Source: Myxococcota bacterium (GTDB taxonomy: Bacteria; Myxococcota_A; Bradymonadia; UBA4248). From it: a stretch of 64,000 nt of DNA. The position numbers and the translations under genes are program-made. The stretch covers positions 10,883 through 74,882 of the forward strand of contig JAZUKH010000046.1 of NCBI GenBank assembly GCA_045643185.1, read 5' to 3'. This document shows, piece after piece, positions 3,268 to 57,378 of the stretch. Each line of letters opens with the position of its first letter. Position 1 is the stretch's first letter. The notes under the pieces were generated by a model. The model did not search any database. It was not told where the DNA came from and saw only the letters and a program-made list of their open reading frames with translations.

Positions 3268-3347
3268 AGGCCCCCGCCAGGCGAAGGGGTAGCGGCGTAT
3301 TGGCGTTTCAACGACAATAGCCGCGTAGGGGGAGACTTCCCCCTCAA
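3268..3347. repeat. REP/MITE-like intergenic repeat, copy 1 (family found 7x in the window)
   Basis: Core GCCAGGCGAAGGGGTAGCGGCGTAT - spacer - ATAGCCGCGTAGGGGGAGACTTCCCCCTC, shared with copies at 7.8, 22.7, 33.9, 35.4, 54.7 and 57.3 kb. Confidence 0.85.
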
Positions 3348-3488
3348 AATAAAAATTCCATCGATTTTCTGCTTAACTTTTGGCGATCCGTGAATAAACT
3401 AACGCCACGCCCGAAACAGTTGGTTTGTGCTGATGCACGAAATGACTGTGTTTTTACAACTTAAGACGTCTCAGAAGGAGAATGGACC

Positions 3489-4049
3489 ATGAGTGAAGAA
3501 GTGAAAAACGAAGAAGTGAAAGTCGACGAAGTGAAAGCTGCAGAAGCGAAAGCCGACGAAGCCAAAGCTGAAGACGCCATTAAAGACACCAAGGACCTGA
3601 TCGTTGAACAGGCGAATGCGCTCAAAGGCAAATTGAGCAACCTGTTTGGTAAAGCGACGGAGATCGGTAATTCGGTCGTCGAGACTGTGAAAGAAAAAGC
3701 CGAAAAAGGCAAAGAAATGTATGACGACAAACGTCGTGACTGGGAAGCCAACGATGTTTATCGCAAACTCGGCAAACGCGTGGCCAAATTGGCAAAACGT
3801 GGCGAATTGGTTTTGCCGGAATCTTGCCAGCAGTACCTCGATGCTTTGGATGACATCTATGGTGAAAACGGCGATGATGACGACAACAGCGGCGAATGCT
3901 GTTGCTGCAGCGACGACAAATGCTGCAGCGACGACAAATGCTGCTGCGACGACAAATGCTGCTGCGACGACAATGCCTGCAAGTGCTGCGACAAATGCAC
4001 GGGGGAAGCCGGTTGCGACTGCGGCTGCGACGATTGCAAATGCAAATAA
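3489..4049 (+). CDS. Small acidic protein with a C-terminal metallothionein-like poly-cysteine tail
   Basis: RBS AAGGAGAAT; the last ~60 aa hold ~27 Cys in CC/CCC clusters (CCCCSDDKCCSDDKCCCDDKCCCDDNACKCCDKC...CDCGCDDCKCK), encoded by ~15-nt tandem repeats. Confidence 0.6.
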   Translation: MSEEVKNEEVKVDEVKAAEAKADEAKAEDAIKDTKDLIVEQANALKGKLSNLFGKATEIGNSVVETVKEKAEKGKEMYDDKRRDWEANDVYRKLGKRVAKLAKRGELVLPESCQQYLDALDDIYGENGDDDDNSGECCCCSDDKCCSDDKCCCDDKCCCDDNACKCCDKCTGEAGCDCGCDDCKCK

Positions 4050-4083
4050 CGCTCGCGAATTAGATCAAATCTAAATGATAAAG

Positions 4084-4118
4084 CCTCATCATGCGCTTGT
4101 GTGATGGGGCTTTTTTAG
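4084..4118 (+). terminator. Rho-independent terminator
   Basis: GCCTCATCA...TGATGGGGC hairpin followed by TTTTTT. Confidence 0.6.
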
Positions 4119-4236
4119 TTTTTGTCATTTTTGTGACCGAATTGTTCAAAAAACTGTTTCAGCTCAAGGCGTTAATCGCTAAAAGAGTATTTTTGGCTCG
4201 TTTGAGTTTTGTCGTGTAAAACGAGGAGAAAATAAG

Positions 4237-5772
4237 TTGCAGGATCTAAGAGCAGATGTCGTTATTATTGGCGGCGGTGTCGCGGGATTGACGAGCGCAT
4301 TGGGTATGCGCGGTCGTCGCGTGATCGTATTGACGAAAGCGGAATTTGGCAAAGGCGGTTCGACGCCGATCGCACAGGGCGGTATTGCCTGTGCCATGGG
4401 GAAAGATGACGATCCGAAGCTGCACGCAGCGGATACGCTTGTGGCCGGGGACGATCTTTGTATTTCGGACTGTGTGGATGTTTTGACGAGCGAAGGCCCA
4501 GCGGCGATCCGCCATTTGATCGAAGAAGGCGCTGAGTTTGACCGCACGCCGGATGGCGAACTTTCGTTTGGTCGTGAGGCGGCGCACAGCCGTCGTCGCA
4601 TTTTGCACGCGCATGGCGACAGCACCGGTGCCGAAGTTGAACGCGCGCTCGTGGCGGCCGTTCGACGCGTGGATTACATTCAGATCATTGAAAAGTGCTA
4701 CGTGGGCGATCTGCTGATGGATGGCGATCGCGTGGTCGGTGCGTATGGCGTCGTGAACGGCGAAGTCGTGCGAGTGTTTGCGCCGGCCGTGGTGTTGGCG
4801 TGTGGCGGCATTGGTCGCATCTACCAATACACGACGAATCCTGTCGAATCGGTCGGTGACGGACTCGCCATTGCGGCGCGTGCTAACGCCGTTTTGTCGG
4901 ACGTCGAGTTCGTTCAGTTCCATCCGACGGCGCTCAACACGAAGTTGGATCCGTTGCCGCTGTTGACCGAAGCTCTGCGCGGTGAAGGCGCGACGCTCCA
5001 CACCGAAGATGGCACGCGCTTCATGGTCGGACTGCACAAAGATGCCGAACTTGCGCCGCGCGATGTCGTGGCTCGCGGCATTTGGAAGCAACAGATGGCT
5101 GGGCACTTTGTGACGCTCGACGCGCGCCACATCGGCGCTGAATTTCCTAACAAATTCCCAACGGTCTACGGCTTTTGTCAGCAGGCCGGCATTGACCCGC
5201 GTGTCGATTGCCTGCCCGTCACTCCGGCTGCCCACTATCACATGGGCGGCGTTTCGGTCGATCAGAACGGACACACCACCGTCAAAGGCTTATGGGCTTG
5301 TGGCGAAGTTTCAGCCACGGGCGTGCACGGCGCTAACCGATTGGCCAGCAACTCGTTGCTCGAAGGCCTCGTCTTTGGCGCCCGTGTCAGTCAGAATATC
5401 GCCGAAATCTCGAATTTTGACGAAAAACTCGGTCAGACCCAGACAGAATGCCCACTTTGCAACACGTTTGTCACGGCTGATGAGGCCGATGATGTCCAAA
5501 AACTTCGCGAAACCATGTGGAATCACGTCGGACTCGTCCGAAATGAAGACGGCATGAAAACAGCACTCGCCTTCTTTGACCAGTTGCGTGAAAAACATGC
5601 CCACCCGTCCATGATGCTCAGAAACATGGTCGATGCGGCCACCATGATCACACAGGCTGCCCGTGAACGCCAGGAAAGCCGCGGCGGTCACTATCGCTCC
5701 GATTTTCCAAACCATTCCGACGTCGCCGAACATCATCCGTTCGTCTACACCGGCAATGGTCCGTGGATCTAG
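4237..5772 (+). CDS. nadB: L-aspartate oxidase (FAD flavoprotein, NadB/SdhA family); TTG start
   Basis: N-terminal FAD fold VVIIGGGVAGLTSAL, AQGGIA motif, C-terminal ESRGGHYRSDFP; 511 aa is NadB-sized rather than SdhA-sized; RBS GAGGAGAA. Confidence 0.75.
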   Translation: MQDLRADVVIIGGGVAGLTSALGMRGRRVIVLTKAEFGKGGSTPIAQGGIACAMGKDDDPKLHAADTLVAGDDLCISDCVDVLTSEGPAAIRHLIEEGAEFDRTPDGELSFGREAAHSRRRILHAHGDSTGAEVERALVAAVRRVDYIQIIEKCYVGDLLMDGDRVVGAYGVVNGEVVRVFAPAVVLACGGIGRIYQYTTNPVESVGDGLAIAARANAVLSDVEFVQFHPTALNTKLDPLPLLTEALRGEGATLHTEDGTRFMVGLHKDAELAPRDVVARGIWKQQMAGHFVTLDARHIGAEFPNKFPTVYGFCQQAGIDPRVDCLPVTPAAHYHMGGVSVDQNGHTTVKGLWACGEVSATGVHGANRLASNSLLEGLVFGARVSQNIAEISNFDEKLGQTQTECPLCNTFVTADEADDVQKLRETMWNHVGLVRNEDGMKTALAFFDQLREKHAHPSMMLRNMVDAATMITQAARERQESRGGHYRSDFPNHSDVAEHHPFVYTGNGPWI

Positions 5773-5781
5773 GGGGAAAGC

Positions 5782-7813: not shown

Positions 7814-7886
7814 TGAGGGGGAAGTCTCCCCCTACGCGGCTATTGGCGTTCGCCAATACGCCGCTACCCCTTCGCCTGGCAGGGCC
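7814..7886. repeat. REP/MITE-like intergenic repeat, copy 2 (inverted orientation)
   Basis: GAGGGGGAAGTCTCCCCCTACGCGGCTAT-TGGCGTTCGCCAAT-ACGCCGCTACCCCTTCGCCTGGC. Confidence 0.85.
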
Positions 7887-8053
7887 CACGACGGCGTTTG
7901 CGTGAACCACGTCGCTTGTGCCGCACCACGTCACGGCGCTACTACACACGTAAACGAATCTGTGATATGACACGCGCGCCGTATGGCATGTCGCATGCCC
8001 GGTAGATTTTGAATGAATGATATTCTTGGCCAATGGCCGTGGTTTTGTGAAAT

Positions 8054-11721: not shown

Positions 11722-12180
11722 CTACTTGTTTTCTGAGTTGTCGTATATTTCATTATATAAATCTCTGGCTTTTTGTAAGAAGAATAGCATGTATGATTCG
11801 TTTGAATCAATACCATTATTCAGAGTGCTTATCATGTCATTTAAAACATAAAACCCCGTGTTTGCGTATTCTTCAGCATATTGGTACGCTAAAGAATCAT
11901 CATCCAAATTTTCAATTTCGTTATCATGGATAAGTTGATTGATAAGAATTGAGCGCAAAGTGGCTCTTTTGAAATAATCCAGAGTTTCTGAGCGGATAAA
12001 GTCCACGCGTTTTTTTAGTGGTTTTCGTTGACCATTTTCAATGCCAATAGCGACTGCAAATAGAAACAGATCACTTCGATCACAAGATGACTTACCCAGT
12101 TTCATGAAGTCTAAATCATCGATTTGTGGTATGATTTTAGATTGAACGTATGAATCAATATAAATTCTTGGTTCTTGCAT
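11722..12180 (-). CDS. Hypothetical protein, last gene of the AT-rich 6-gene operon
   Basis: AT-rich codon usage matching the island; start immediately follows the upstream stop (12180/12183). Confidence 0.5.
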   Translation of the reverse strand: MQEPRIYIDSYVQSKIIPQIDDLDFMKLGKSSCDRSDLFLFAVAIGIENGQRKPLKKRVDFIRSETLDYFKRATLRSILINQLIHDNEIENLDDDSLAYQYAEEYANTGFYVLNDMISTLNNGIDSNESYMLFFLQKARDLYNEIYDNSENK

Positions 12181-12182
12181 GA

Positions 12183-14168
12183 TTAAATCTCCTTAATGGC
12201 ATTGGTGTAGATTTCATCAATTGGTTTGAGAATGTGTTTGCTTGCTACAATCGTATTTGTGAATTGAGCTTGTATTTCTTTTGAAAATTCAGAGGGTGTT
12301 AGGGCAAGAATGATTTGCTTTGTTTTGCTGATTTCGACAAGTGATTTTGCAAAATTGGATCGATTTTCTGTATCGACACGACCAACAGGAGTATCAATAA
12401 ATAATAAAGAATCAAAACCAGATATTCTATGCATGGCAAGTGTAAAAGCTAAGGCTAATAATTGGCGTTCTGCGGATGAACCGACTAAATCTGTATTATT
12501 TAAATGTTTATTGTAAACGGCCATGTTATAGTCTTCATCGAGCGTAATGCGATCAAATGTATTCTTTTTCCACTCTAACTTTTCAAAAATCCGCATAGTT
12601 TCGGTTTCAATTTGTATTCGAAGGTCTGAGATGCATTTTGTTTTTAATTTTTCAAGAAGATCTAATGCATTGGTCGCAAATAGATAGTAATTATTAACAA
12701 TCTTATTGCTTTCTTGTTTCTGAGTGGCTTCAATTAGTTTTGTTTGATATTCCTTAATCTTTTCTTGGCATTTGTTCAGTTTAGGTGTTAATTGTCCAAT
12801 TTCTTCAGAATCCTTAGCAATTTGATTACGGTAAAAATTTCGTCGTTCAATACAATTTGTAATTTCATCAGGGTCAGGACATAGCTTAATTTTATTGATA
12901 AGTTCTTCCTTGGTTAACTCACATTCTCGTATTTTTTGTTCGATGTGAGCCTGTTCTTTTATAAGACTATTGATTTGATCATTCAAATCGCGTGGCCTTG
13001 AACACCATTTTTCAAGATCACTTTTGATTTCAACGAGTTTGTGTGATACTGATGATGAAAAATTAATCTGGTCAAGTAAATTTTGAATTTTCTGGATAGC
13101 TGTTTCGGATAAGTGACTACCACAGATTTTACATTGTTCATCTTTTAATGTATCATTTAGTACGCTGATATCAATACGAGGAGGAAGTTGTCCTTTGGTG
13201 CTGGCGTCGATGATGTAATGGTATACGGATTGATTTGTTTTATATAAGATAATTGAAATAAATAGATCTCGTGTTAATTTATAAAGTTTGGATTTGTTTG
13301 TATTTAAAGTTTTGTTGAAGTCATCGATCTGGGATTGGGTTAAGTCGAGCTGCTTTTGTTCGTCAGCGATGCATTCCATGCCAGAAATTTGTCTTGTGAG
13401 TCGTTCGAATTCTCTATTTGAAATAGCTCTATCCTGATTTAAGGTGTTTATTTTTCTTTCATATTCATCTTTTGATTGTTTACAATTGTTTAATTCTGTT
13501 TCGATTTCTTGACATTTTGGAATGTCTTTAGAGATTTGTTTGCAATATGAACTTATTACGCCTCGTAAATCGTTTTCTAGGTTTTCTAGATCAGTGATTT
13601 TTGACATCTTATAAATAGAACTTCTTACATTTTTTTGTTGTTGACTATCGAAATAGTCTGATAACTGCTCACCATCAAAAAAGAAGTATCCTCGAATAGC
13701 TTGGGGAAATTTTGAACGAATTATTTCTGTGGCTTCAGCATTCGTTTTAACATCTGATTGGTTTGTTAATAAATTAGTTTGTGTGACAATAAACTCATCT
13801 GCACCAGTCATTTCTGTTCTGACGCTGTATTTTAAAGATCGTTCTATTGTCAATTTTATGTTTTCTATTGTGCTGCGCGCTATTATCACAACTTTTACTG
13901 CGACAAACTCATCACCAATGCCTTTTGTTTCAAGAATCGATTTTGCATTGCAAATTGATTTTTTATCATTTCTATACGTTAATGACCCAATATGTGGCTC
14001 ATCATTATATAAACACCAATTGATGGCATTTAACAGGTTGGTTTTGCCAACGCCGTTACGACCGATAATGATGTGTAGGTCAGCATTGCCCTGATTGGGC
14101 TGATCAAATTGAAAGAAAGCATCCTGATATTGACGGTAGTTAATGATTTTGACGGAATCAATTCTCAT
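12183..14168 (-). CDS. SMC-like Rad50/SbcC-family ATPase with a central CxxC zinc hook
   Basis: N-terminal Walker A GRNGVGKTNLLNAINWCLY; long central coiled coil containing CKICGSHL; C-terminal LLFIDTPVGRVD (D-loop/Walker B region). Confidence 0.7.
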   Translation of the reverse strand: MRIDSVKIINYRQYQDAFFQFDQPNQGNADLHIIIGRNGVGKTNLLNAINWCLYNDEPHIGSLTYRNDKKSICNAKSILETKGIGDEFVAVKVVIIARSTIENIKLTIERSLKYSVRTEMTGADEFIVTQTNLLTNQSDVKTNAEATEIIRSKFPQAIRGYFFFDGEQLSDYFDSQQQKNVRSSIYKMSKITDLENLENDLRGVISSYCKQISKDIPKCQEIETELNNCKQSKDEYERKINTLNQDRAISNREFERLTRQISGMECIADEQKQLDLTQSQIDDFNKTLNTNKSKLYKLTRDLFISIILYKTNQSVYHYIIDASTKGQLPPRIDISVLNDTLKDEQCKICGSHLSETAIQKIQNLLDQINFSSSVSHKLVEIKSDLEKWCSRPRDLNDQINSLIKEQAHIEQKIRECELTKEELINKIKLCPDPDEITNCIERRNFYRNQIAKDSEEIGQLTPKLNKCQEKIKEYQTKLIEATQKQESNKIVNNYYLFATNALDLLEKLKTKCISDLRIQIETETMRIFEKLEWKKNTFDRITLDEDYNMAVYNKHLNNTDLVGSSAERQLLALAFTLAMHRISGFDSLLFIDTPVGRVDTENRSNFAKSLVEISKTKQIILALTPSEFSKEIQAQFTNTIVASKHILKPIDEIYTNAIKEI

Positions 14169-14365
14169 TTTGAAATCTCCTTAGATGTAACATTTCTATT
14201 GATTTCGTTATAAGTCTTTTCTATGATCTTTTGACAAGTCTTTTTATTGTGGATTCTATCATTGAATTGATAATTAATTAGCCTTTGTAATAACTCTTGA
14301 ATGCTTTTGTCGCCACGAGTAACTTCAAGAAGATTCTTTTCGATGAGTTCATTAAGATTTCCCAT
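14165..14365 (-). CDS. Small 66-aa protein, translationally coupled upstream of the SMC-like ATPase
   Basis: ATGA overlap with the downstream gene; lies inside the operon. Confidence 0.4.
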   Translation of the reverse strand: MGNLNELIEKNLLEVTRGDKSIQELLQRLINYQFNDRIHNKKTCQKIIEKTYNEINRNVTSKEISK

Positions 14366-14377
14366 AATATTCTCCTT

Positions 14378-16486
14378 TTATATTAAACCAGTTTTGGTTA
14401 TATCGGCAACCGCCTGGCTTCCGTTTATTGCTTCAGTAGCTATAGCAAAGATTCGTTTCATTTCTTTTTTGAAGATTCGCTTATCAAAATTTCTTTCTTC
14501 ATTTGACCAATCAGAATAATCAGGAGTGACAACAAAATCATCTATATAGGCAAGCTGTTTGTTGCCGTTATCACGTAGCACTCTACCTAAACGCTGAATA
14601 TACTCTCTTGCGTTCTCACTACTTGACAATAGAATTGCCCGTGAGGCTGTCTTGATGTCAATCCCTTCGTCCAGACATTTTATCGCAACAAGTATCTGAT
14701 AATAGCCGTTTCGAAATTTTTCAAGGATATCTTCTCTTTCAGATATACCCTTATCATCAATTTTTGTTGATTCGGACTGCGTAAATCGATGGCCAGATAT
14801 ATTAAGCTTAACAAGTAGTTCTTCAACTTTATCTATCTGTTTGTCTGAGACATAGATAATAGTATCACGAATGTCTGAAATTGAGGAGAGAAGAATTTTT
14901 AATGCAGAGATCTTGTGTTCAGCATTTTTAACGATATTTGCTCTTTTGAATAGCAGTTGTTCATATTTTTCATTATTTTCTATGTCATCATCTTTTGTGT
15001 GAATTAATTTGGATAATTTCTTAGTCAGCTTGTTATATTCGCTAGATTCGTTCTCAGTTAAATTGATAGGATATATATTGTATTTATAACTCACAAGAAA
15101 TGTACGATTTGTTACTGGGTTGATTGTTGTTAATGCATCATGTAATGAAAAAGTGAATTCATTGTTCATAAAATACGATTTAAGCAGATTTGTTCCTTCT
15201 TCATCGAACCATCTATCTGGAGTGGCGCTTAAACCGAGCCGATAATCGTATTTATCGAGCAATGACTTTTTGGTTTTGGAGGCTCCCATGCCATGGACTT
15301 CGTCCCCTATAAGCATGGTTTTATAACTATAGGATTTGATAATCTTTATAAAATCATCAGTGCACGCTGAACAGTGTGTTACATAGATAAGAATTTGTTT
15401 ATAAATTCCAAGATTAGCTTTTTGAAGAACACAGTTCAGATCTTTTTTCCAATTTGTGTGGTTACTATCGCAGACAATTGTTTGATCAAATCGAAGTTGG
15501 AGTGAATCGATTTCCTTTTTCCATTGAGATTGGAGTGTAATTTGTGGAATTGCTATGATTGTCAATAATTTTTGACAATTTTGTTGCGCATTTTCAAGAC
15601 ATTTTACTGCTGTGAAGGTCTTTCCTGTTCCAGTGGCCATTTCGAGCAACATAATTCTGTTACATTCGATCCAGTGTTCAATCGCTCTATTTTGATATGG
15701 AAAAGGCAACTTTTCAGATTGAGGCTTTGTAATAATTGATACACTTGTGTGATATCGGTTTTCGCGATATCGATCTAGAGATAGCTTATCATTTTGATAA
15801 TCTTCGCCTCGTTCTATTAGACGTTGTTTGACCGCAGTTGGTAAGTCTATGACTTCTAGCGAAGCGACGCTGTTATTCCACATTGAGTTAAAGTCGTTTT
15901 GGTGTCCTTGAAAGTATTCTCGTTGACCCGCATTCCAATTTTTATATACCTCGAAACGTTCATCATTCCATAACCAACCTGAGGCCGATTCATTGTTTGA
16001 ACCACTAAAAGAAATGCCATAATCGATTGATTTATTGTCGTACAGAATGCCAAACTTTTGATGCATAATGGGATTGTTGGCTGTATTCCTTACGTCTTTT
16101 ACGATAGCTATTTTTATTTGAAGTTTATTATTGGCCAACATCCAGCCAAGTGCTGCAATATGATCATTGAGAAAGTAATCAGGAATGTCTTCGATTGCAG
16201 TGATCATAGATTCTTCTAGAATCTTGTTTTGGTTTTCAATGACATTTTGAATGGTTTTAATATCATCATCACTTAGTTTTGGACATGTAATGAGTCTCAT
16301 GGTGCCACCATTTGCAATAAGCCCACCAATGCCTCGAGCTGCAATAGCTAAACTAGTTGATGAAAAATACCCCGATATTCTGTCATATTTCCTGGCTTCA
16401 CATAGTGCGGGAATATAGAAATCAGAGATCAAGTCGTCTTCTGAGCTTTTATATTGTATTTTTATGGGCAAATCCTTCAAGCTCAT
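14378..16486 (-). CDS. Fusion of an N-terminal PLD (HKD-motif) nuclease domain to a C-terminal SF2 DEAD/DEAH-box helicase
   Basis: IMHQKFGILYD...GSNN HKD-type motif (single copy); helicase motifs MATGTGKT (I), IGDEVH (II), LSATP (III), QRLGRVLR (VI). Confidence 0.75.
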   Translation of the reverse strand: MSLKDLPIKIQYKSSEDDLISDFYIPALCEARKYDRISGYFSSTSLAIAARGIGGLIANGGTMRLITCPKLSDDDIKTIQNVIENQNKILEESMITAIEDIPDYFLNDHIAALGWMLANNKLQIKIAIVKDVRNTANNPIMHQKFGILYDNKSIDYGISFSGSNNESASGWLWNDERFEVYKNWNAGQREYFQGHQNDFNSMWNNSVASLEVIDLPTAVKQRLIERGEDYQNDKLSLDRYRENRYHTSVSIITKPQSEKLPFPYQNRAIEHWIECNRIMLLEMATGTGKTFTAVKCLENAQQNCQKLLTIIAIPQITLQSQWKKEIDSLQLRFDQTIVCDSNHTNWKKDLNCVLQKANLGIYKQILIYVTHCSACTDDFIKIIKSYSYKTMLIGDEVHGMGASKTKKSLLDKYDYRLGLSATPDRWFDEEGTNLLKSYFMNNEFTFSLHDALTTINPVTNRTFLVSYKYNIYPINLTENESSEYNKLTKKLSKLIHTKDDDIENNEKYEQLLFKRANIVKNAEHKISALKILLSSISDIRDTIIYVSDKQIDKVEELLVKLNISGHRFTQSESTKIDDKGISEREDILEKFRNGYYQILVAIKCLDEGIDIKTASRAILLSSSENAREYIQRLGRVLRDNGNKQLAYIDDFVVTPDYSDWSNEERNFDKRIFKKEMKRIFAIATEAINGSQAVADITKTGLI

Positions 16487-17214
16487 ATATTAATTCTCCA
16501 GTCGATGCAATCCATTAGCTGAATAAGGTAGGATCCAGATAATGCGAATGTTAAGACCTGCTTCGTGTTAGCTTGGCGTCTTACTGCAGTTTTGTATGAA
16601 ATCGAAGATAAACAACTGCTATAGCTCCAAAATCCTTTGGTGTATATTGATTTTAAGATCGTTTGTATGAAAATATTAGAAAATAAAAGCTTTTTTATAA
16701 GCGATGAACGTATTGTTAACGGGTAGATGAGCATTTGATTGCTAAGTGCTGTTATCCTTACTTTGATTGGCTTTTCTTCGCTAATGGTTACCAATTTCAT
16801 CATGGCCGCAAGCTTAGCATGGTTTTCACCATATTTTAGTTGAGCTCCTGGTGTTTTGGATTGTATCAATTGGTAGCCTAAATCTTTAAATCCCATGCCT
16901 TGAGGCATGAATGACAAAATCTCACTTACTCTGAATATGCCATGTTCAAAATTGCTAAAACATGGTATGTCGTTTGCCAATAAAGTAACTTCTTTTATAT
17001 TATTGTCGTTAAAAATCTGATTGATAAAAGCCTCTTCAGAATACTCATTTAGTTTTTGTATGAAAATTTCTAATTCGTCTTTTGAAGCATTGTTGATAAT
17101 GTTATTTATTTCTGGTTCGTTGGTTAAGAATTTATGCAAAAAATCGTCATAAAATTGAGAATTGTAGGCCTGATCGAGATTGTTAGTATTCGCATCTGGA
17201 TATGTGTTATTCAT
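16483..17214 (-). CDS. Hypothetical protein (no recognisable motif), operon member
   Basis: ATGA overlap with the downstream gene; AT-rich island codon usage. Confidence 0.5.
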   Translation of the reverse strand: MNNTYPDANTNNLDQAYNSQFYDDFLHKFLTNEPEINNIINNASKDELEIFIQKLNEYSEEAFINQIFNDNNIKEVTLLANDIPCFSNFEHGIFRVSEILSFMPQGMGFKDLGYQLIQSKTPGAQLKYGENHAKLAAMMKLVTISEEKPIKVRITALSNQMLIYPLTIRSSLIKKLLFSNIFIQTILKSIYTKGFWSYSSCLSSISYKTAVRRQANTKQVLTFALSGSYLIQLMDCIDWRINI

Positions 17215-17216
17215 TA

Positions 17217-18395: not shown

Positions 18396-18436
18396 CCTTG
18401 ATCCTGAAAAAGCTGGTTATTTATGAATAATCTTCG

Positions 18437-22656: not shown

Positions 22657-22752
22657 GGGCCCTGCCAGGTGAAGGGGTAGCGGCGTATTTTTTCCATGAT
22701 GCCACGCAGCATCATGGGAAAAATAGCCGCGTAGGGGAAGGCCTTCCCCTTC
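22657..22752. repeat. REP/MITE-like intergenic repeat, copy 3
   Basis: GCCAGGTGAAGGGGTAGCGGCGTAT-[palindrome TTTTTTCCATGATGC..GCATCATGGGAAAAA]-TAGCCGCGTAGGGGAAGGCCTTCCCCTTC. Confidence 0.85.
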
Positions 22753-22755
22753 ACA

Positions 22756-29884: not shown

Positions 29885-29936
29885 GTTATGTAGCGGCGTG
29901 CGTGCCGCTACATTATATAATGTAACGATAAGTTTT

Positions 29937-33842: not shown

Positions 33843-33950
33843 AGGCCCTGCCAGGCGAAGGGGTAGCGGCGTATTTTTCCCACGTAGTTGCGTAGCATGC
33901 TACGCAGCAACGTGGGAAAAATAGCCGCGTAGGGGGAGACTTCCCCCTCC
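33843..33950. repeat. REP/MITE-like intergenic repeat, copy 4
   Basis: GCCAGGCGAAGGGGTAGCGGCGTAT-[47-nt palindromic spacer]-ATAGCCGCGTAGGGGGAGACTTCCCCCTC. Confidence 0.85.
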
Positions 33951-35342: not shown

Positions 35343-35363
35343 ATAGGTCGTTTGGGATTTGGG

Positions 35364-35437
35364 AGGGGGAAGTCTCCCCCTACGCGGCTATTGGCATCAT
35401 CGCCAATACGCCGCTACCCCTTCGCCTGGCGGGGCCT
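35364..35437. repeat. REP/MITE-like intergenic repeat, copy 5 (inverted)
   Basis: GGGGGAAGTCTCCCCCTACGCGGCTAT-TGGCATCATCGCCAAT-ACGCCGCTACCCCTTCGCCTGGC. Confidence 0.85.
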
Positions 35438-46145: not shown

Positions 46146-46357
46146 GATGACCTCCAAAAGGGTTTAACTGTGGGTGAAATGCCGTAAAACTTTCAAATTT
46201 TCTCCAATTCAGAACGAATTAGTTACCAAAACACGATTCTACATTATACCGTTTATTCATTTTATATGGCAATTGATTTCGGCTGTTCTCGAGTTACAGT
46301 TCAGCCTCATTGCCAGCGCGATGTTATTATCTCAACCGGGGCATGAATCATAAAAGC

Positions 46358-46392
46358 GCCGCCGTATGCAATAGGCGGCGCGGCGAGCCGTA
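46358..46392. terminator. Terminator hairpin downstream of the 46436-48514 gene
   Basis: GCGCCGCC-GTATGCAATA-GGCGGCGC palindrome. Confidence 0.55.
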
Positions 46393-46435
46393 TTCGCGGA
46401 GCGAATAGGCGCGCCTAAAAATTAAAAAATATAAA

Positions 46436-48514
46436 TTAATGACACGCAAATTCGATGCAGGTGATGCAAGAATTCTGACATTTTCCGCAGTTTTTGAAGT
46501 CATCACGTAAATCTGCTTCGCAACCATTCGTGGGTTGGCCGTCGCAATCAGCCCAACGGTGGAAGTAATCGTCACCCATGTATTCATAAATTTCGTCTGT
46601 CTCGCAGGTCAGAATGGGGGTGCCATCCTGGCATTGGACATGGGTGACATGCAATACGGTATCGGTTGTGAGATCGACATCACATGCGCCGCAATGATGT
46701 ATATCCGTTTTGAGATCGACAAATTCAGTGCCGCACTGGGTGTAGCCTGCGGGCACGTCCAAGCATGTACCTTCAAAACAGGTGTGGTCGCCGCAATCGA
46801 TGTTGCAGTCGCCGCAATGGTGGGAATCTGTTTTTAGATCGACGCAGCCGGCACTGCCGCAAGACGTGAATTCTGGTTCGCATTGACAAGCCCCATCGGC
46901 GCAGCTTTGACCCTCGCCGCAATCGATGCTGCAGTCGCCGCAATGTTGGGGATCTGTTTTTAGATCGACGCAGCCGGCACTGCCGCAAGACGTGAATTCT
47001 GGTTCGCATTGACAGGTTCCGTCGGCGCAGATGGCGTTGGACTGGCACTGGTTGCCGCATGCGCCGCAATTGAGGCGGTCTGTCTTGATGTCGACGCAAA
47101 GATCGTTGCAATGTAGCCAACCGCTGTTGCATACATCGCAGACGCCATGGATACAGGCTTTGGGGCCGCAGTCGTTGCCGCATGCGCCGCAGTTGTTCTG
47201 GGTCAGAAGGCTCGTTTCGCAGCCATTGCTGATTTTGCCGTCGCAGTCGGCATAATTTTCCGCGCATTGACCTTCACAGTTGAGCCAGTGCTGTTTGCTC
47301 AGGTCGAAACAGGTCGTTTTAGAACACCTGGTCTCATTGGCTGCGCACTGAATCTCGCAGCTGCCGTCAATGCAGACGAAGTTTTCGGGACATTTGTTTC
47401 CGCATGCGCCGCAGTGATCTGAGCTGATACGGGTGTTGGCTTCGCAGCCGTTGGTGAGGTCGTTGTCGGCATCGCACCACTCATTTTGACATTCTGTACA
47501 GGCGCTGAGATGCCAGATCGACAGGTTGGCTTCGCAGCCGTTGTCGGCATTTTGGTCGAGGTCGCAGAAGCCGGCTGCGCAGGCTGTGCAGTCGTCATTG
47601 AGATGAACGAGGGCTGCGTTCGTTTCACAGCCATTGGCGAGCGTCTTGTCGAGGTTGCACCATCCGGCTTCGCAGCCGTCGCAGGTCGCGTTCAGATGAA
47701 GTGTCTGGGCGTGGCTCTCGCAGCCGGTCGAGGCTTTGTTGTTGTCCATGTCGCACCACCCTTCAAGACAGGTGTCGCAGCTGGCGAGGTTTTTGGCTGA
47801 AAGATGGGTGCACTGATGGCCACAAAGCACGTTGCCCTGATCGGCACGGCATTGAGAAAGACACTGACCTTCGATGCAGAATTCGTATGCCTGACAGGCA
47901 ATTCCGCATGCGCCGCAGTTTTCGCTATCTTCTTGGGTGTTGGTTTCGCAGCCGTTGGCCGGGTTGGCGTCGCAGTTTTGATAGCCGGATGCGCATGTGC
48001 CGCACGTGCTGTAATGCAGTTCTGAGGTTGTTTTTTCACAGCCATTGCTCAAATCGTCGTCGAGGTCGCAGTAACCCTCGTTGCAGTCAGAGCAGGTCGT
48101 GTTGAGATGAAGTTTGTGGGCGTCCGCTTCGCAACCTGTGGCGGTATTGTTATCGAGGTCGCACCAGTTCTCAACGCACGTGTCGCATTTGGCGTAGTGC
48201 TGACGGGCGAGTTGAATGCAGTGATCGCCGCATTTGGCATAGCCGTCTGAGGCCGGGCACTCGGAGGCGCAGACCCCTTGGGCGCAGACTTGGCCGTCGT
48301 TGCAGCTTCTGCCGCACTGGCCGCAGTTTGACTGGGTGTTCAGGTCGGTCTCGCAGCCGTTTGAACGCGTGTGATCACAGTCTACGAAGCCACTTTGACA
48401 TGTCTGGGGCTCATCTTCGGATGAAGTAGAAGGTTCGTGACTTTCATGACACGCGGAAAGATATATGACACTGATGATGCAGATATTTATGAATAATTTG
48501 TTATGATATTTCAT
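46436..48514 (-). CDS. Cysteine-rich repeat lipoprotein (692 aa), family member
   Basis: Lipobox ...VIYLSAC; repeated NCGACGNxC / HCGDCxIDC / LHLNxxCxxCxxGxCDLDxxxxNGCE modules; 114-bp tandem duplication. Confidence 0.7.
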   Translation of the reverse strand: MKYHNKLFINICIISVIYLSACHESHEPSTSSEDEPQTCQSGFVDCDHTRSNGCETDLNTQSNCGQCGRSCNDGQVCAQGVCASECPASDGYAKCGDHCIQLARQHYAKCDTCVENWCDLDNNTATGCEADAHKLHLNTTCSDCNEGYCDLDDDLSNGCEKTTSELHYSTCGTCASGYQNCDANPANGCETNTQEDSENCGACGIACQAYEFCIEGQCLSQCRADQGNVLCGHQCTHLSAKNLASCDTCLEGWCDMDNNKASTGCESHAQTLHLNATCDGCEAGWCNLDKTLANGCETNAALVHLNDDCTACAAGFCDLDQNADNGCEANLSIWHLSACTECQNEWCDADNDLTNGCEANTRISSDHCGACGNKCPENFVCIDGSCEIQCAANETRCSKTTCFDLSKQHWLNCEGQCAENYADCDGKISNGCETSLLTQNNCGACGNDCGPKACIHGVCDVCNSGWLHCNDLCVDIKTDRLNCGACGNQCQSNAICADGTCQCEPEFTSCGSAGCVDLKTDPQHCGDCSIDCGEGQSCADGACQCEPEFTSCGSAGCVDLKTDSHHCGDCNIDCGDHTCFEGTCLDVPAGYTQCGTEFVDLKTDIHHCGACDVDLTTDTVLHVTHVQCQDGTPILTCETDEIYEYMGDDYFHRWADCDGQPTNGCEADLRDDFKNCGKCQNSCITCIEFACH

Positions 48515-48614
48515 CGTTATGATAACTTGTTATGAGAAATATAACATATCCTACGCATTTCAACGTTATTTGTAATGCTGAATCATCGTAAGATCTAGTC
48601 GATAAAATGCAAAC

Positions 48615-50318
48615 TCAGTGATGATGACAGGTTTGTTCATAAGTGATTGGATTTGTGCTTAGGTTTTCACAGCCGTTTTCATCATTTCCGTCGCAGTTTT
48701 CATAGGTTGAATATGTATTCTCACGGTCCCAGCATGTCGATTTGACATGGCCATTTTCACAGGTGAAGGCTTTGGCATGCATGGCATCTAGGTCGTATTT
48801 TTTATACAGGTCAATGTCGCATTCACCGCAATGTTTGATATCTGTTTGGAAATCAGCACAATCACCGGAGCAGAAATGAAGTCCTGACGGGCATTTGCAG
48901 GTTCCGGAGAGGCATGAAGCTTCACCGCATGCGTTGTTGCATGTCCCGCAATGATCGTGATTGTTAAGAAGATCGGTTTCGCATCCGTTGACCGGGTCGC
49001 CGTCGCAGTCGGCATGATCGGGCATACAGGTGCCGCTGCAGTCGGTCCAGTGTCGCTGAGTCAGATTGACGCATTCATTGTCGCACGGTGTTTCGTAAGA
49101 TCTGCAAGGCATCGTGCATGTGCCAGCATCGCAAGTGTCCTCAGGACGACATTCTTGGCCGCATGCGCCGCAGTTGAGGGAATCGCTGGCGATGTTGGTT
49201 TCGCAGCCATTGGAAGCCTCGTTATCGCAGTCGGCATAACCGGCAACGCAGGTGCCGTCGCAGTCAGTCCAGTGAAGCGGCGTGAGATCGACGCAGTTTT
49301 CACCGCATCCCGTCTGGTCGAGCGGGCACTGACGGCACTGGCCGTGGTAGCATTTTTCGCCGATTTCGCAGGCGTGACCGCATGTGCCGCAATTTACGGT
49401 ACTTGTTGAAGCCTCGTCTTCGCAACCATTGGTGAGGTCGTTGTCGGCATCGCACCAGCCCGGGGCGCAGGCGTCACAGCTGGACAGGTGGAGCACTGTC
49501 ATGTCGGCCTCGCAGCCGTTGCTGGCGTTTTGATCGAGGTCACAAAAGCCGGCTGCACAGGTTGCGCAGTCGGCGTTCTGGTGCAGATATTCGGCCGAAG
49601 CTTCGCAGCCGTTTGTGGCCATGTCGTGGTCGGCATCGCACCAGTTGATTTGGCATGTATCGCACGAAATCAGGTGGTTTTGAGTCAGATCGACGCAGTT
49701 TTCGCCGCAGACGGCTAGGCCGTATTCGGCAGAACAGAGGGATGCGCATTCGCCGTGAACGCAGTATTCAAAGGCGTGGCATTGGTTTCCGCATGCGCCG
49801 CAGTGATCGCGATCGGCGGTCAGTTTTTGTTCGCAGCCGTTTGTGGCATCGCCGTCGCAGTCGCCGTAGCCGGGCTGGCACGTGTCGCATGTGCTCTGAT
49901 GACGGTCGGTCAGGGCGCTTTCGCAGCCATTGGTGAGGTCGTTGTCGGCGTCGCACCAGCCGCTTTCGCAGGCATCACAGGCTTGGTTCAGGTGATGGGC
50001 GTAGGCGCTGAATTCGCAGCCGTTGGCCATATCGTGGTCGGCATCACACCAGCCCTCGAGGCAGGTTGAACACATCACCAGGTGGTTCTGAGCGAGGTTG
50101 GTGCATTTTCCCCCGCACATGAAAAAGCCTTGTTCTGCCTGGCAGTCGACGATGTCGCAGCAGGATGTGCCGCAAATTTGTTTGCCTTCCGGGCATTTCG
50201 TGTCGCAGGTGTCGCACGAAGGCGTGTCATCGGGCGTCTTGGAGGCTTCGTCGCTTTCGGATTCGCATCCCGCCAGGAAAAGTACAGTCAGAGCAAGAAT
50301 AATGGGGATCTTTTTCAT
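48615..50318 (-). CDS. Cysteine-rich repeat lipoprotein (567 aa), paralog of the preceding gene
   Basis: Lipobox MKKIPIILALTVLFLAGC; same module types as the 46436-48514 product. Confidence 0.7.
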   Translation of the reverse strand: MKKIPIILALTVLFLAGCESESDEASKTPDDTPSCDTCDTKCPEGKQICGTSCCDIVDCQAEQGFFMCGGKCTNLAQNHLVMCSTCLEGWCDADHDMANGCEFSAYAHHLNQACDACESGWCDADNDLTNGCESALTDRHQSTCDTCQPGYGDCDGDATNGCEQKLTADRDHCGACGNQCHAFEYCVHGECASLCSAEYGLAVCGENCVDLTQNHLISCDTCQINWCDADHDMATNGCEASAEYLHQNADCATCAAGFCDLDQNASNGCEADMTVLHLSSCDACAPGWCDADNDLTNGCEDEASTSTVNCGTCGHACEIGEKCYHGQCRQCPLDQTGCGENCVDLTPLHWTDCDGTCVAGYADCDNEASNGCETNIASDSLNCGACGQECRPEDTCDAGTCTMPCRSYETPCDNECVNLTQRHWTDCSGTCMPDHADCDGDPVNGCETDLLNNHDHCGTCNNACGEASCLSGTCKCPSGLHFCSGDCADFQTDIKHCGECDIDLYKKYDLDAMHAKAFTCENGHVKSTCWDRENTYSTYENCDGNDENGCENLSTNPITYEQTCHHH

Positions 50319-50397
50319 TATGCAGAATCTGAAATGTCGCGTGTTGTCATTCAGCACGACTGTTAATAATATATAAGGATGCTTTTTATATAATATG

Positions 50398-50468
50398 GGC
50401 GCGGGCTATCGGCGTTGCCGATCCGCCCGACGGGCGCGGGCTATCGGCGTTGCCGATACGCCCGCTTT
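50398..50468. repeat. 35-bp direct repeat x2, each containing the palindrome ATCGGCGTTGCCGAT, downstream of lon
   Basis: GGGCGCGGGCTATCGGCGTTGCCGAT occurs at 50398 and 50433. Confidence 0.7.
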
Positions 50469-50550
50469 GGCGGCGCTTCTCCCTCGCTTGAGCCGCCCGA
50501 ACCGGACGGCTCTACGCTCGCTCAATACGCGCCGCCCCTTTTGATACGTC

Positions 50551-54675: not shown

Positions 54676-54756
54676 GGCCCCTGCCAGGCGAAGGGGTAGC
54701 GGCGTATTTCGCATGCGAAATAGCCGCGTAGGGGGAGGCTTCCCCCTTCAATAATA
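54676..54756. repeat. REP/MITE-like intergenic repeat, copy 6
   Basis: GCCAGGCGAAGGGGTAGCGGCGTAT-TTCGCATGCGAAAT-AGCCGCGTAGGGGGAGGCTTCCCCCTTC. Confidence 0.85.
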
Positions 54757-54798: not shown

Positions 54799-55836
54799 TT
54801 AATCTTCAGATTTGCCGTTTTCGTCTTTGTTTTCTTCTGATTTGCCGTTTTCGTCTTTGTTTTCTTCAGATTTGCCGTTTTCGTCTTTGATTTCTTCTGA
54901 TTTGCCGTTTTCGTCTTTGATTTCAGGCGAGGATTGAGGGACGGGCGTCATATCAGATTTGATTTGAGGCGTGCCGTTATTGTCGGTCTCGACCTGGAGT
55001 TCGCCGGAAGGCGTGACGGCGGGAAGATCGGTCATGGAGGCGCGGCGGCGTTTACGGCGATGAGGCTTCATGTGTTTGAGGCTCATGTAGATGGAGTTGA
55101 GGATGCCGAAGCCGACGTAGTAGCAGACGAAGAAGAAGAAAGCCGTTGCTGGGTGGAGAACGAAGCAGAGTGCGGCGAAGAGGAGGACGCCGATGGCGAT
55201 GAAGATGTAGTCGCCGGTGGTCTTTTTGCCTTTGAAGGTCTTGTATTTGACGGTTGAGACCATGAGGATGCCGATGGCGATGGCGATGGCGCCAAAGGTG
55301 TTGACTTCAAAGGAGGTCAGGTTTGTGACGTCGATGATCTGTGGATTTTTGAGCGTGGCCATGACGATGGCAGCGATACAAGCGGCGCCACCGGGTGCGG
55401 GAATGCCTTTGAAGTAGGTCTGGACGCCTTCGGGTGGGGCTTCGACGTTGAATCGGGCGAGTCGGAGGATGGCACCGCATGCGAAGAGGAATGCGGCGAT
55501 GATGCCGTACCAGCCGGCGGAGGTGAGGCAGAAGCCGTAGATGAGGATGGCGGGTGCGATACCGAAGCTGACGGCATCGGCGAGGCTGTCGAGTTCCATG
55601 CCGAATTTTGTGGAGGTGTGCGTGGCGCGTGCGACTTTACCGTCGAAGGTGTCAAAGACGATGCTGCCGATGACCGCGAGGGCGGCGAACATCATGGTGT
55701 CGAGTCGTTCCTGACCGGCCTGGCTTTGGGCTTCGAAGCTCCACGCCATAGACAGGAAGGCGCAGAAGACCGAGCTGAGGGTCACGAGGCTTGGGAGCGC
55801 GAAGACCGCTTTGTTGATTTTCTTAATTTTTGCCAT
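54799..55836 (-). CDS. pssA: CDP-alcohol phosphatidyltransferase, likely phosphatidylserine synthase, with a repetitive acidic C-terminal tail
   Basis: DTFDGKVAR...GMELDSLADAVSFG is the D-G-x-x-A-R...G...D...D motif; C-terminal (K/E)DENGKSEEN x4 from a 30-bp tandem repeat. Confidence 0.65.
   Translation of the reverse strand: MAKIKKINKAVFALPSLVTLSSVFCAFLSMAWSFEAQSQAGQERLDTMMFAALAVIGSIVFDTFDGKVARATHTSTKFGMELDSLADAVSFGIAPAILIYGFCLTSAGWYGIIAAFLFACGAILRLARFNVEAPPEGVQTYFKGIPAPGGAACIAAIVMATLKNPQIIDVTNLTSFEVNTFGAIAIAIGILMVSTVKYKTFKGKKTTGDYIFIAIGVLLFAALCFVLHPATAFFFFVCYYVGFGILNSIYMSLKHMKPHRRKRRRASMTDLPAVTPSGELQVETDNNGTPQIKSDMTPVPQSSPEIKDENGKSEEIKDENGKSEENKDENGKSEENKDENGKSED
54806..54925. repeat. 30-bp tandem repeat x4 inside the pssA 3' end
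   Basis: TCAGATTTGCCGTTTTCGTCTTTGTTTTCT repeated four times with one or two substitutions. Confidence 0.85.
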
Positions 55837-55883
55837 GAAAGCGTTTCCTAAAGTAGTTAGAAGTTTGTGGGTGGGCGTCGCGA

Positions 55884-56246
55884 TTATGAATGTGTTTTGG
55901 GCGTCCAACGGGTCTTATCTCTTGCGTCGATCTTTTCTAGCGTTTTTTGCATGAGGTCGTCGAGTTTGATGTGATGACCATTGGCAAAGCAAATGAGGAC
56001 GAGGAGGAGATCTCCGAGTTCTTCTTCGACGTTTGCGACTTCCTCGAATTTATCTGTGGCTTTGAGCTTTTTAGCGCCTTCGGCGTATGAGACGGCTCTT
56101 GCGAGTTCTCCAAGTTCTTCGGAGAGGCGCGCGAGCTGAATGAAGGAGGGAAAATAGCCTTCTTCGAACTGATCGATCCACTGATCGACGCGATCCTGAG
56201 CCTCTTTGAAGGTGAGTGGAGCAGATTTTGGCAGATCGTAGGACAT
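55884..56246 (-). CDS. MazG-like nucleotide pyrophosphohydrolase
   Basis: EELGELARAV...EEELGDLLLVL EExxE-type helices typical of the MazG/NTP-PPase fold; 120 aa. Confidence 0.55.
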   Translation of the reverse strand: MSYDLPKSAPLTFKEAQDRVDQWIDQFEEGYFPSFIQLARLSEELGELARAVSYAEGAKKLKATDKFEEVANVEEELGDLLLVLICFANGHHIKLDDLMQKTLEKIDARDKTRWTPKTHS

Positions 56247-56299
56247 GATGAGACCTTGGTTAAGGGCGATTGCCCGTGAGCGGCTTTTGGGCGAATTGC

Positions 56300-56341
56300 G
56301 TGTGAGCTTTAAAGTGTGAGCTTTAAAGTGTGAGCTTTAAT
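56300..56341. repeat. 14-bp tandem repeat x3 (GTGTGAGCTTTAAA) in the divergent mazG-like / rplU intergenic region
   Basis: Read directly from the sequence. Confidence 0.85.
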
Positions 56342-56565
56342 ATGGTTAGCTTGCATGACTTTATTTTGGTAAAGTTTGCGTCCATGGCATGCCCAAGAAG
56401 CAGGGCGCATTTTATCATAAAAATAACTTGACGCAACAGGGGGGATGCGTGTAGAAATGTGCGTCATTTCGGAGGGTGGAAATTTTTTACCTTCTGATAG
56501 ATTCAGCCCCGTTCGCGCCTGAGAGCGCGTTATTTTGTATCTTTAGAAAGACTGAGGTTTGTGAA

Positions 56566-56871
56566 ATGTACGCTGTGATTCGCACAGGTGGTAAACAGTA
56601 CCGCGTTAGTCAGGACGACGTTTTGCGCGTTGAAACGCTGAAAGCGGAAGTCGGTTCGACAGTGAAATTTGATGTTCTCGCGATTGGCGAGGGCGAGGGT
56701 CTCCGCATCGGTAAACCGGTCGTGGATGGCGCGAAAGTTGAAGGCGTTGTTCTGAAACAGGCGCGTGCTCGTAAAGTTCTTATCTACAAATTCGAAAATA
56801 CGAAGAATTATCACCGTAAAAAAGGTCATCGTCAGGCCTACACGGAAGTTCGTATTTCTACGATCGGCTAA
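56566..56871 (+). CDS. rplU: 50S ribosomal protein L21
   Basis: MYAVIRTGGKQYRVSQDDVLRVE canonical L21 N-terminus. Confidence 0.9.
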   Translation: MYAVIRTGGKQYRVSQDDVLRVETLKAEVGSTVKFDVLAIGEGEGLRIGKPVVDGAKVEGVVLKQARARKVLIYKFENTKNYHRKKGHRQAYTEVRISTIG

Positions 56872-56898
56872 TCTCGATCATTACTAGGAGAATTAGAA

Positions 56899-57159
56899 AT
56901 GGCTCATAAGAAAGGTCAAAGCTCAAGCCGTAACGGTCGTGATAGCAATCCGCAGTTCCGCGGCGTGAAAGTTTATGGTGGTCAGGCCTGCCGCGCTGGT
57001 AACATCATCGTTCGTCAGTGTGGTACGCGCGTTCACCCGGGTCTCAACGTTGGTGTTGGCCGTGACTGGACGATCTTCGCCCTCGTCGATGGCATCGTCA
57101 GCTTCGAAACCTACAACCGCGGCAAAAAACGCGTCAGCGTTATCCCCGCTGAAGGCTAA
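56899..57159 (+). CDS. rpmA: 50S ribosomal protein L27
   Basis: [29 protein letters not shown] canonical L27 N-terminus; RBS AGGAGAA. Confidence 0.9.
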
Positions 57160-57312
57160 TCGCTTTCAAATTTTTTAGGCCGTGTTTCGCACGCGCCTTC
57201 CTGTATGGATCGGTGAATCACTGATTCAATCCCCAAAGCACAAAAAGTAATTCCGCCTCCTTGGGTTGCTTTTTGTGCTTTTTTGTATCTGCTCTCCGAT
57301 GGCATTTTTAGA

Positions 57313-57378
57313 TGGGGGAAGTCTCCCCCTACGCGGCTATTTCGCATGCGAAATACGCCGCTACCCCCTCTGCCTACG
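57313..57378. repeat. REP/MITE-like intergenic repeat, copy 7 (inverted, one end diverged)
   Basis: GGGGGAAGTCTCCCCCTACGCGGCTAT-TTCGCATGCGAAAT-ACGCCGCTACCCCCTCTGCCTACGG. Confidence 0.8.

Follow-up and report, generated by a model that had tools for sequence, protein, structure and literature searches.

The GTAG-tagged superfamily of repetitive extragenic palindromes (REPs) described by Di Nocera, De Gregorio & Rocco (2013, PMC3733652) comprises high-copy, G+C-rich intergenic stem-loops with GTAG at the foot of the stem, which show compensatory stem variants and some G.T pairs, are represented by several families in one genome, and favor the spaces near the 3' ends of unidirectional and convergent open reading frames (ORFs); in two of its families, GTAG-3 and GTAG-14, the "loops" are of variable length and self-complementary, up to 27 bp. 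In E. coli, the substrate of TnpA-REP is a bulged imperfect palindrome preceded by GTAG (PMC8266576). Here we analyze a GTAG-tagged hairpin element that is present in seven copies in a 64 kb stretch of a Myxococcota bacterium (assembly GCA_045643185.1, contig JAZUKH010000046.1, positions 10,883 to 74,882; hereafter the window, to whose full length all coordinates without a locus number refer). We conclude that the element is genuine, an unusually conserved hairpin repeat of REP type that is specific to its lineage, and not a new kind of element. That this family acts on the DNA level, with recognition by an enzyme resembling the REP-associated tyrosine transposases (RAYTs) as the best-supported mechanism, we hold with a probability of roughly 0.5. 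To us most interesting are the invariance of its bulged clamp across genera and the finding that members of one REP family repeatedly lie nested within loops of a second.

The element resembles the GTAG superfamily in the respects listed above: it is a high-copy, short, G+C-rich intergenic palindrome with GTAG at the stem end and a preferred location at 3' ends between unidirectional and convergent ORFs, its stems carry compensatory variants and some G.T pairs, and several families coexist in a genome. Its core furthermore shares the format of a bulged palindrome after GTAG with the E. coli TnpA-REP substrate (PMC8266576). Unlike the described families, however, the element strings two or three tagged hairpins together head to tail, has GTAG on both sides of its core, two offset bulged Gs and an invariant G-TAT/ATA clamp, and bears tips of up to 64 nt (exceptionally 105–156 nt) that host other REPs. 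The original prediction, made from the window alone, had called constant arms around variable palindromic centers unusual; the arrangement is real and holds in 68 copies, but the self-complementary loops of GTAG-3 and GTAG-14 are a precedent for it. The mosaic, modular make-up also recalls the E. coli "REPtron" of bacterial interspersed mosaic elements (BIMEs) and TnpA-REP (PMC3333891, PMC8266576), although no tnpA-REP gene flanked by the element was found here, and BIMEs alternate the orientation of their REPs whereas the hairpins here are co-oriented. Insertion sequences (IS) that enter REPs, such as IS1397 and ISKpn1 (PMC1525189), likewise use repeat hairpins as landing sites for mobile DNA, but the nested inserts described below are small hairpin repeats and not full IS.

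Read in its own orientation, the element measures 75–115 nt or more and consists of up to three co-oriented (head-to-tail) hairpins on one strand. The first, or 5' module, is GCGGGGG-loop-CCCCCGC in many copies of RGIG464 and a C-run/G-run hairpin in the window, and is missing in others. GGGG-GTAG stands between this module and the core stem, GCGGC-[G]-TAT / ATA-GCCGC-[G]-TA, in which one extrahelical G (bracketed) protrudes on each side at offset positions, so that the two DNA strands fold differently. The core hairpin, which accounts for 22 nt without its tip, is capped by a self-complementary tip of 6–64 nt (105 and 156 nt in exceptional cases), and a second GTAG leads into a 3' hairpin, GGGGR-NNNN-YCCCC, followed by a tail of about 13 nt that begins (A/T)CC and continues A-rich. 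The tags stand ahead of both hairpins in all seven window copies (GGG-GTAG-CGGCG for the core, GCG-GTAG-GGGG for the 3' hairpin), and among copies found by covariance model but not by pattern the 5' tag may read GTCG or GGCG and the 3' tag GCAG; in the 56 copies chosen by sequence pattern (our first alignment) the tag evidence is circular, because GTAG belonged to the search pattern.

Support for the folded form comes from our second alignment, of 68 model-aligned copies, in which 96.4% of the cells are paired, against 84.9% in shuffles and 44–57% with slid partners. Changes on both sides were found at 11 of the 20 pairs. The first tip pair is UA in 35 copies, GC in 20, CG in 8, UG in 3 and AU in 1, with none unpaired, and over the four tip pairs that adjoin the clamp all Watson-Crick types are represented. 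The sixth, innermost pair of the 3' hairpin alternates between A-U (50 copies) and C-G (12). The UAU/AUA clamp shows no change in 67 of 67 copies. Where the core itself departs from the common form, which is rare, the change is compensated, as with a C-G to T-A change at L011:4463, two flipped pairs at L035:363 and a G-C to T-A change at L063:5380 (L numbers denote loci fetched for comparison). G.U pairs show no strand bias, with 11 on the top strand and 14 on the bottom.

Within the window, the two half-motifs of the original prediction each give 6 matches at ≤3 mismatches, where dinucleotide shuffles lead one to expect 0, and the shorter cores GGGGTAGCGGCGTAT and ATAGCCGCGTAGGGG occur exactly seven times each, always as pairs, at the predicted sites. 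The covariance model built from the 56 copies likewise finds exactly these seven, all at E ≤ 2e-17, and no further full copy anywhere in the window, so that the predicted set of seven is borne out. Folded as single strands, all seven lie well below shuffled controls (z −3.6 to −8.3). They are 1.5–19 kb apart, in the orientations + − + + − + − in order, and relative to the gene whose 3' end precedes them some are sense and others antisense. Their features are as follows.

Copy 1, 3268..3345, + strand: 5' C-run/G-run hairpin, GGGG-GTAG, core stem with bulged G, 16-nt tip with one G/A mismatch, then GTAG and the GGGGGAGACTTCCCCC hairpin; 77.5 bits, z −5.3.
Copy 2, 7815..7887, − strand: 12-nt tip TGGCGAACGCCA; antisense to the + genes on either side; 79 bits.
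Copy 3, 22657..22752, + strand: 34-nt tip with one T.G pair, 3' hairpin GGGGAAGGCCTTCCCC; antisense to its − strand neighbor genes; 72 bits, z −5.9.
Copy 4, 33843..33949, + strand: 46-nt tip with one A/A mismatch and one T.G pair; between the TraB/GumN and lipoprotein genes; z −8.3.
Copy 5, 35363..35437, − strand: 14-nt tip; a stop codon lies on one side of it and a canonical terminator (about 35475-35505) on the other.
Copy 6, 54676..54748, + strand: 12-nt perfectly palindromic tip TTCGCATGCGAA; between convergent genes.
Copy 7, 57312..57396, − strand: tip identical to that of copy 6, divergent 5' module; after the rpmA terminator and before obg; 81.6 bits.

The detailed description in the original prediction requires some amendment. 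In copy 7 the first 10 nt of the left motif (GCCAGGCGAA) are replaced by unrelated sequence. The centers, described as always perfect palindromes of 13–47 nt, are palindromic overall, but they span 12–46 nt between TAT and ATA and three of the seven (copies 1, 3 and 4, with the mismatches and T.G pairs given above) are imperfect. The terminal hairpin is kept throughout, though copy 3 carries the compensated variant GGGGAAGGCCTTCCCC in place of the common sequence.

Beyond the window, a scan of one genome per species with the pattern GTAGCGGCGTAT-N10-40-ATAGCCGCGTAG gave at least 45 matches, and all those listed fall in eight uncultured metagenome-assembled genomes (MAGs) labeled Myxococcota, Myxococcales or "Proteobacteria", whose sources include cattle colon, buffalo rectum, an isolate named Cu122P3bin5 and others. 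In total we collected 68 full copies in 412 kb of DNA from at least eight MAGs and unbinned metagenome contigs. One contig from ENA (L061) belongs to the window's own species (99.2% identity), the proteins of which are 56–76% identical to those of the other carriers and find their closest named homologs in Proteobacteria, Bradymonadales and Haliangium MAGs. By inference the window itself comes from this lineage, and its uncultured Myxococcota host probably lives in the gut. In coding DNA the window and the fetched loci share no more than 68% identity, yet their 24-nt core is the same; between carrier genomes the core is identical or within two changes, and as such it offers a specific marker of the lineage in metagenomes. 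Searches of viral contigs and plasmids gave no match to the element. Contigs break off within copies (L023:7900-8000, L053:6308-6408), which suggests that the repeat probably breaks metagenome assemblies.

The original prediction had named two observations that would speak against it, namely a match to a REP or MITE (miniature inverted-repeat transposable element) family already catalogued and distant copies devoid of the palindromic center. Neither was found: the core sequence and its complement have no match in the paper texts or in those supplements and consensus files of the REP catalogue that were searched, so that at the sequence level no catalogued family corresponds to the element, and copies outside the window retain the palindromic center. 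A search of the window against Rfam gave no match at gathering thresholds, and at a permissive E-value only generic long-hairpin (microRNA precursor) matches far below threshold; no tRNA or tmRNA was detected.

In 11 of 68 tips of the core hairpin we find a second hairpin family, which we call REP-2 (GTAGrGACGT..ACGTCyCTAC), and the same hairpin sits within the loop of a 3' hairpin at L062:5839-5973. REP-2 also stands alone, in L039 and, at gene 3' ends, in the window at 63441-63497 (in tandem) and at 40341-40362, where the repeat reads GTAGAGACG..CGTCTCTAC. Nesting can go further, as in L053, where one tip contains an inverted clamp hairpin that itself encloses a REP-2-like hairpin, and at L063:1016-1251 the tip contains about 120 nt of non-palindromic DNA. 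Copies of one genome share tip subfamilies, as do copies of different genomes, and the differences among such tips are paired changes. One case is provided by five REP-2 tips in RGIG464; another is a GCGCGCA..GAGCAC extension, found in five MAGs, in which C/A and G/A mismatches are conserved. Because such subfamilies are shared, whole units must have been copied. Complementarity reaches to within 2 nt of the center in 18 of 65 tips, and the central three pairs are Watson-Crick in 10 of 65, compared with about 1.6% by chance, an excess that is overstated because several of these tips are related by descent. Symmetry carried to the very center of a tip is not selectable by folding, whereas DNA-templated symmetry can yield it.

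At one further locus, L014:2454-2600, the tip has grown to at least seven tandem 17-nt units (GTAGGTACGTTCCAAAT), each equivalent to half of a REP-2 hairpin, which constitutes a further mode of tip growth.

The clamp itself is found beyond the element. Hairpins built as stem-G-TAT-[tip]-ATA-stem are found with a wide range of other outer stems, frequently two in tandem, and we count 27 of this clamp type against a median of 4 for other combinations of bulge and triplet. Conversely, the more distant L054 retains the frame GGGGGTAG-stem...stem-GTAG-GGGG..CCCC, with another stem and no clamp at its foot. Hairpins of the window that are related to the element without being full copies are the following.

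Solo perfect GTAG hairpin ATGTAGCGGCGTGCGTGCCGCTACAT, 29888..29913, + strand: has a 10-nt left arm, GTAGCGGCGT, in common with the element.
Two tandem clamp hairpins with other outer stems, 46356..46415, + strand: stem-G-TAT-[tip]-ATA-stem architecture.
Two tandem clamp hairpins (CGGGC-G-TAT...ATA-GCCCG) and one degenerate, 50402..50538, − strand: 3' of lon; weak model match at 50439-50462.

With respect to genomic position, the claim that all seven window copies are intergenic is confirmed by the gene positions of the window, and the label "REP-like" proved apt, as the element is dispersed, high-copy, intergenic, hairpin-forming and GTAG-tagged, and sits at gene 3' ends in either orientation. 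The further claim that five of seven copies flank genes for secreted proteins or lipoproteins is unsupported, given that only the gene at 33972-35342 (with a lipobox) and a few membrane proteins fit it. The neighbors are mostly housekeeping genes, such as those for L27 (rpmA), obg, pyrimidine-nucleoside phosphorylase, lon, holB and a peptidyl-prolyl isomerase (PPIase), in addition to genes for a WYL protein, an AAA ATPase, TraB/GumN and an O-antigen ligase. Among the 41 classifiable copies of the whole collection, 40 lie between unidirectional or convergent genes, near a stop codon and within tens of nt of it. Relative to the element the neighboring genes are (−,−) in 22 cases, (+,+) in 11, convergent in 7 and divergent in 1, so that in unidirectional settings the element is antisense to the preceding gene 22 times and sense 11 times; these counts are approximate because genes were called by a crude codon-score ORF picker, a limit that also tells against the reading favored here.

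Comparison of orthologous spacers shows that copies are gained, lost or inverted between related species. The spacer downstream of TraB/GumN holds the element in + orientation in the window and in L061, in + orientation with another 5' module and a nested tip in L053, and in − orientation with a compensated core in L063; L052 and L062 lack it and are left with an 8-nt spacer. Between the PPIase and HEAT genes the window has the solo hairpin (29888-29913), L062 one full copy and L063 two, and after lon a canonical copy in L012 takes the place of the clamp hairpins of the window. Over 4.7 kb, indels separate the window from L061 only in the apical loop of copy 5 (2 nt) and at the left edge of copy 4 (3 nt).

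Taken as a REP-type family acting on DNA, the element would be read by an HUH/Y1 enzyme of the RAYT (TnpA-REP) type, which would recognize the foot and the GTAG tags sequence-specifically on folded single-stranded DNA, and would disperse and homogenize the copies. The apical loop, as exposed single-stranded DNA, would accumulate indels and would take nested insertions of other mobile hairpins, notably those of a second REP family with its own RAYT, and intrastrand template switching during replication would maintain the complementarity of the arms, to which selection for a stable stem may contribute. We infer this history of the loop because of the nesting, the descent of tips from one another, their DNA-type symmetry and the loop indel between strains. 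Template switching is able to create and maintain hairpins (PMC8794818), and REPs are known as insertion targets (PMC1525189). Where it is transcribed within a 3' untranslated region (UTR), the element would give a stable hairpin in either orientation, which may explain why it is tolerated, or mildly favored, at gene ends.

The original prediction proposed a search for a RAYT or IS200-like gene elsewhere. Using tblastn with RAYT, IS200 and IS608 sequences and then with 40 retrieved RAYT homologs, we found Y1 genes only in L004 and L029 and none in the window; both lineages were then followed into other contigs. The gene at L004:1120-1635 (RGIG464) matches Pfam Y1_Tnp at 6e-9 and carries the JGI name RayT; a GTAGGGCGGGTC REP cluster precedes it, three clamp hairpins come after it, and REPs of this type lie on either side of a 52%-identical homolog from another organism. 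The second Y1 gene is at L029:295-993, and the lineage it forms with L056 has REP-2 clusters downstream and one canonical copy of the element, inverted, 500 nt upstream. In L059 and L060, Y1 homologs have clamp hairpins within 30–330 nt. Thus all four Y1 genes in clamp-bearing contigs have clamp hairpins or one canonical copy 30–500 nt away, in − orientation upstream or + orientation downstream and never on both sides. This closeness is suggestive, and points to a link without establishing the cognate enzyme.

A number of observations weigh against the RAYT-type reading. Not only is a Y1 gene missing from the window, but no Y1/RAYT gene with the element on both sides was found in the DNA searched. 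The L004-type RAYT and its homolog are flanked by a different repeat, REP-1 (GTAGGG(G)CGGGTC), the L029-type Y1 gene has REP-2 clusters as its neighbors, and three more distant Y1 homologs lie in operons resembling restriction-modification systems with no hairpins nearby. The proximity of clamps to Y1 genes is itself weakly significant (roughly p 0.005–0.05), because clamps occupy about 1/7 of intergenic spacers. Head-to-tail GTAG hairpins are rare among described REPs (PMC3733652), and a unit of 75–115 nt or more exceeds the classical REP of 20–40 bp. Finally, identical arms with randomized loops and tips would be the pattern left by old copies under purifying selection, for which ongoing transposition is unnecessary.

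Some details of these loci deserve mention in their own right. Upstream of the L004 RAYT, at L004:640-1050, a dense array of 20-nt units (GCTATATGGCTGGGCTTAGA, GCTGTAGGGCGGGTCTGAGA) is mixed with complete GTAG REPs; it is a BIME-like cluster consisting partly of half-REPs. REP-2 palindromes lie inside the coding sequence of L029-type Y1 genes (L059:5272-5299, L060:2936-2963, L056:5404-5416), and this probably accounts for the long insertion in their proteins (232–244 aa as opposed to about 170–190). The 3' hairpin GGGGAGAC of the element fits GGGGWSAS, which has been reported for the terminal inverted repeats of Y1 transposases associated with such repeats (PMC3733652), possibly by coincidence, because the motif is short and other variants of the hairpin do not fit it.

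The strongest alternative, though one we consider unlikely, is that the element is a site selected by the host and no longer self-mobile. Its bulged foot would be bound sequence-specifically by a chromosomal protein, or would be a module prone to cruciform formation, on the model of the IHF, gyrase and Pol I sites in E. coli BIMEs; purifying selection would maintain it at hundreds of gene ends and leave loops and tips free to drift. Such a site would account for a core that is near-identical between genomes as diverged in protein and coding DNA as those above, for the randomization of all unconstrained positions (hairpin loops and tips) around an invariant UAU/AUA, for the occurrence of both orientations, and for the want of a linked transposase. 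It is less easily reconciled with orthologous spacers in which the element is present, absent or inverted, or with tip subfamilies shared within one genome, which imply the copying of whole units; furthermore, a clamp superfamily with many outer stems implies that the sequence of the outer stem is not itself essential.

Somewhat less probable again is a more speculative idea, in which the invariant bulged clamp (GC-[G]-TAT / ATA-GC, between two GTAG tags) would be the site of a dedicated hairpin-specific protein other than the two RAYT lineages found, and the apical loop a landing pad for mobile hairpins (REP-2, inverted clamp hairpins) and even for the ~120 nt of cargo DNA. If true, this would amount to a self-nesting, "hairpin-in-hairpin" system of single-stranded DNA conserved across uncultured Myxococcota genera, undescribed for REPs.

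A cis-acting RNA element of the 3' UTR, be it a hairpin that stabilizes or processes mRNA or a non-canonical terminator, seems doubtful to us. REPs are thought to act so in other bacteria (PMC3733652), the copies lie within tens of nt of stop codons, copy 5 stands between a stop codon and its terminator and is as such transcribed, and the hairpins are very stable and contain some G.U-compatible pairs. Nevertheless, about two thirds of unidirectional copies are antisense to the preceding gene, and in antisense RNA the bulged G turns into a bulged C. The balanced G.U pairs, complementarity that reaches the center of the loop and is thus beyond selection on RNA folding, and the failure to match Rfam also speak against it, and the "structured RNA" of the original prediction is disfavored on the same grounds of mixed orientation to transcription, strand-neutral G.U pairs and centers complementary through the loop. 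Nor is the element the lineage's terminator, because hairpin-plus-T-run terminators of the ordinary type coexist with it, adjoining copies 5 and 7; an intrinsic terminator was in any event rejected, as the tail of the third hairpin is (A/T)CC and then A-rich, with no U run.

We regard as improbable a minimal derivative of the IS200/IS605 family (PATE-like), in which the outer hairpins would be subterminal ends, the middle would be cargo, and TnpA would act in trans. In RGIG464-type copies the first hairpin (GCGGGGG-loop-CCCCCGC) and the third (GGGGR-loop-YCCCC) are indeed alike, on the same strand and in the same orientation, Y1 genes exist in the host genome, and the absence of a target-site duplication is as expected of the family. 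The G-to-C 5' hairpin, however, is missing in many copies that are equally conserved, including all seven of the window, the DNA examined yielded no IS200/IS605 tnpA or tnpB bearing such ends, and the supposed cargo is more conserved than the ends.

Integron attC sites have a conserved stem foot with extrahelical bases, strands that fold differently, and a variable terminal structure of widely varying length. The element matches this outline, but its consensus contains no R/L boxes (RYYYAAC/GTTRRRY), its copies stand 1.5–19 kb apart in both orientations among housekeeping and other core genes, and neither a cassette array nor an integrase was seen, so that an attC-like site for a hairpin-specific tyrosine recombinase is close to excluded.

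Other identities were set aside. The "very compact MITE" of the original prediction is unsupported, since the ends of the element are not inverted repeats of each other and, in 59 copies, no duplicated k-mer turned up whichever two flank offsets were compared (the sole matches are internal G runs), which leaves no sign of a target-site duplication. REPINs (Bertels & Rainey) are REP doublets that form long hairpins with conserved arms and are dispersed in hundreds of copies. The element likewise forms long hairpins with conserved arms, dispersed in hundreds of copies, but these arms are 11-nt halves of one stem without an internal palindrome, and not inverted copies of a self-palindromic REP; its variation lies in the tips and not in a mutational cloud, and its right end is ...GCCGCGTAG in place of the inverse complement CTAC. 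A retron, a CRISPR repeat, a DNA-uptake sequence, an inverton and a G-quadruplex were also dropped on account of spacing, orientation, tail composition or missing partner genes.

Several further features of the window were recorded alongside. Beside copy 6, the 3' end of a CDP-alcohol phosphatidyltransferase gene (54799-55908, − strand) contains four to five tandem 30-nt repeats (54803-54952). A run of 13 C at 18437-18449, in the 419-nt spacer upstream of the gene at 17217-18395 (− strand), could vary in length and thereby switch expression. The stretch 11722-22705 resembles a defense island, with genes for an AAA_15/SMC-like ATPase, a ResIII/DEAD helicase, PDDEXK_9 and AAA-ATPase_like proteins, and a type I HsdM methylase in two fragments (18815-19165 and 19211-19624) that is apparently broken; within it, 1.3 kb without a called gene (19625-20949) carries TCATTGC heptamer repeats. 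Three large − strand ORFs at 42234-50357 (1307, 692 and 580 aa) are composed of many diverged Cys-rich repeat modules (families D1-D12), and probably encode repeat proteins that are secreted.

Few non-coding features of bacterial genomes are as abundant as REPs, and it is still debated how they spread and for what reason they persist. In the element described here the part that would be recognized, the foot and GTAG tags, is separate from a free-form tip, and for this reason the sequence itself shows directly where constraint acts and where drift does. The nesting of REPs in loops is direct sequence evidence that exposed hairpin loops serve small hairpin repeats as insertion targets, and these findings extend REP biology to an uncultured lineage of Myxococcota.

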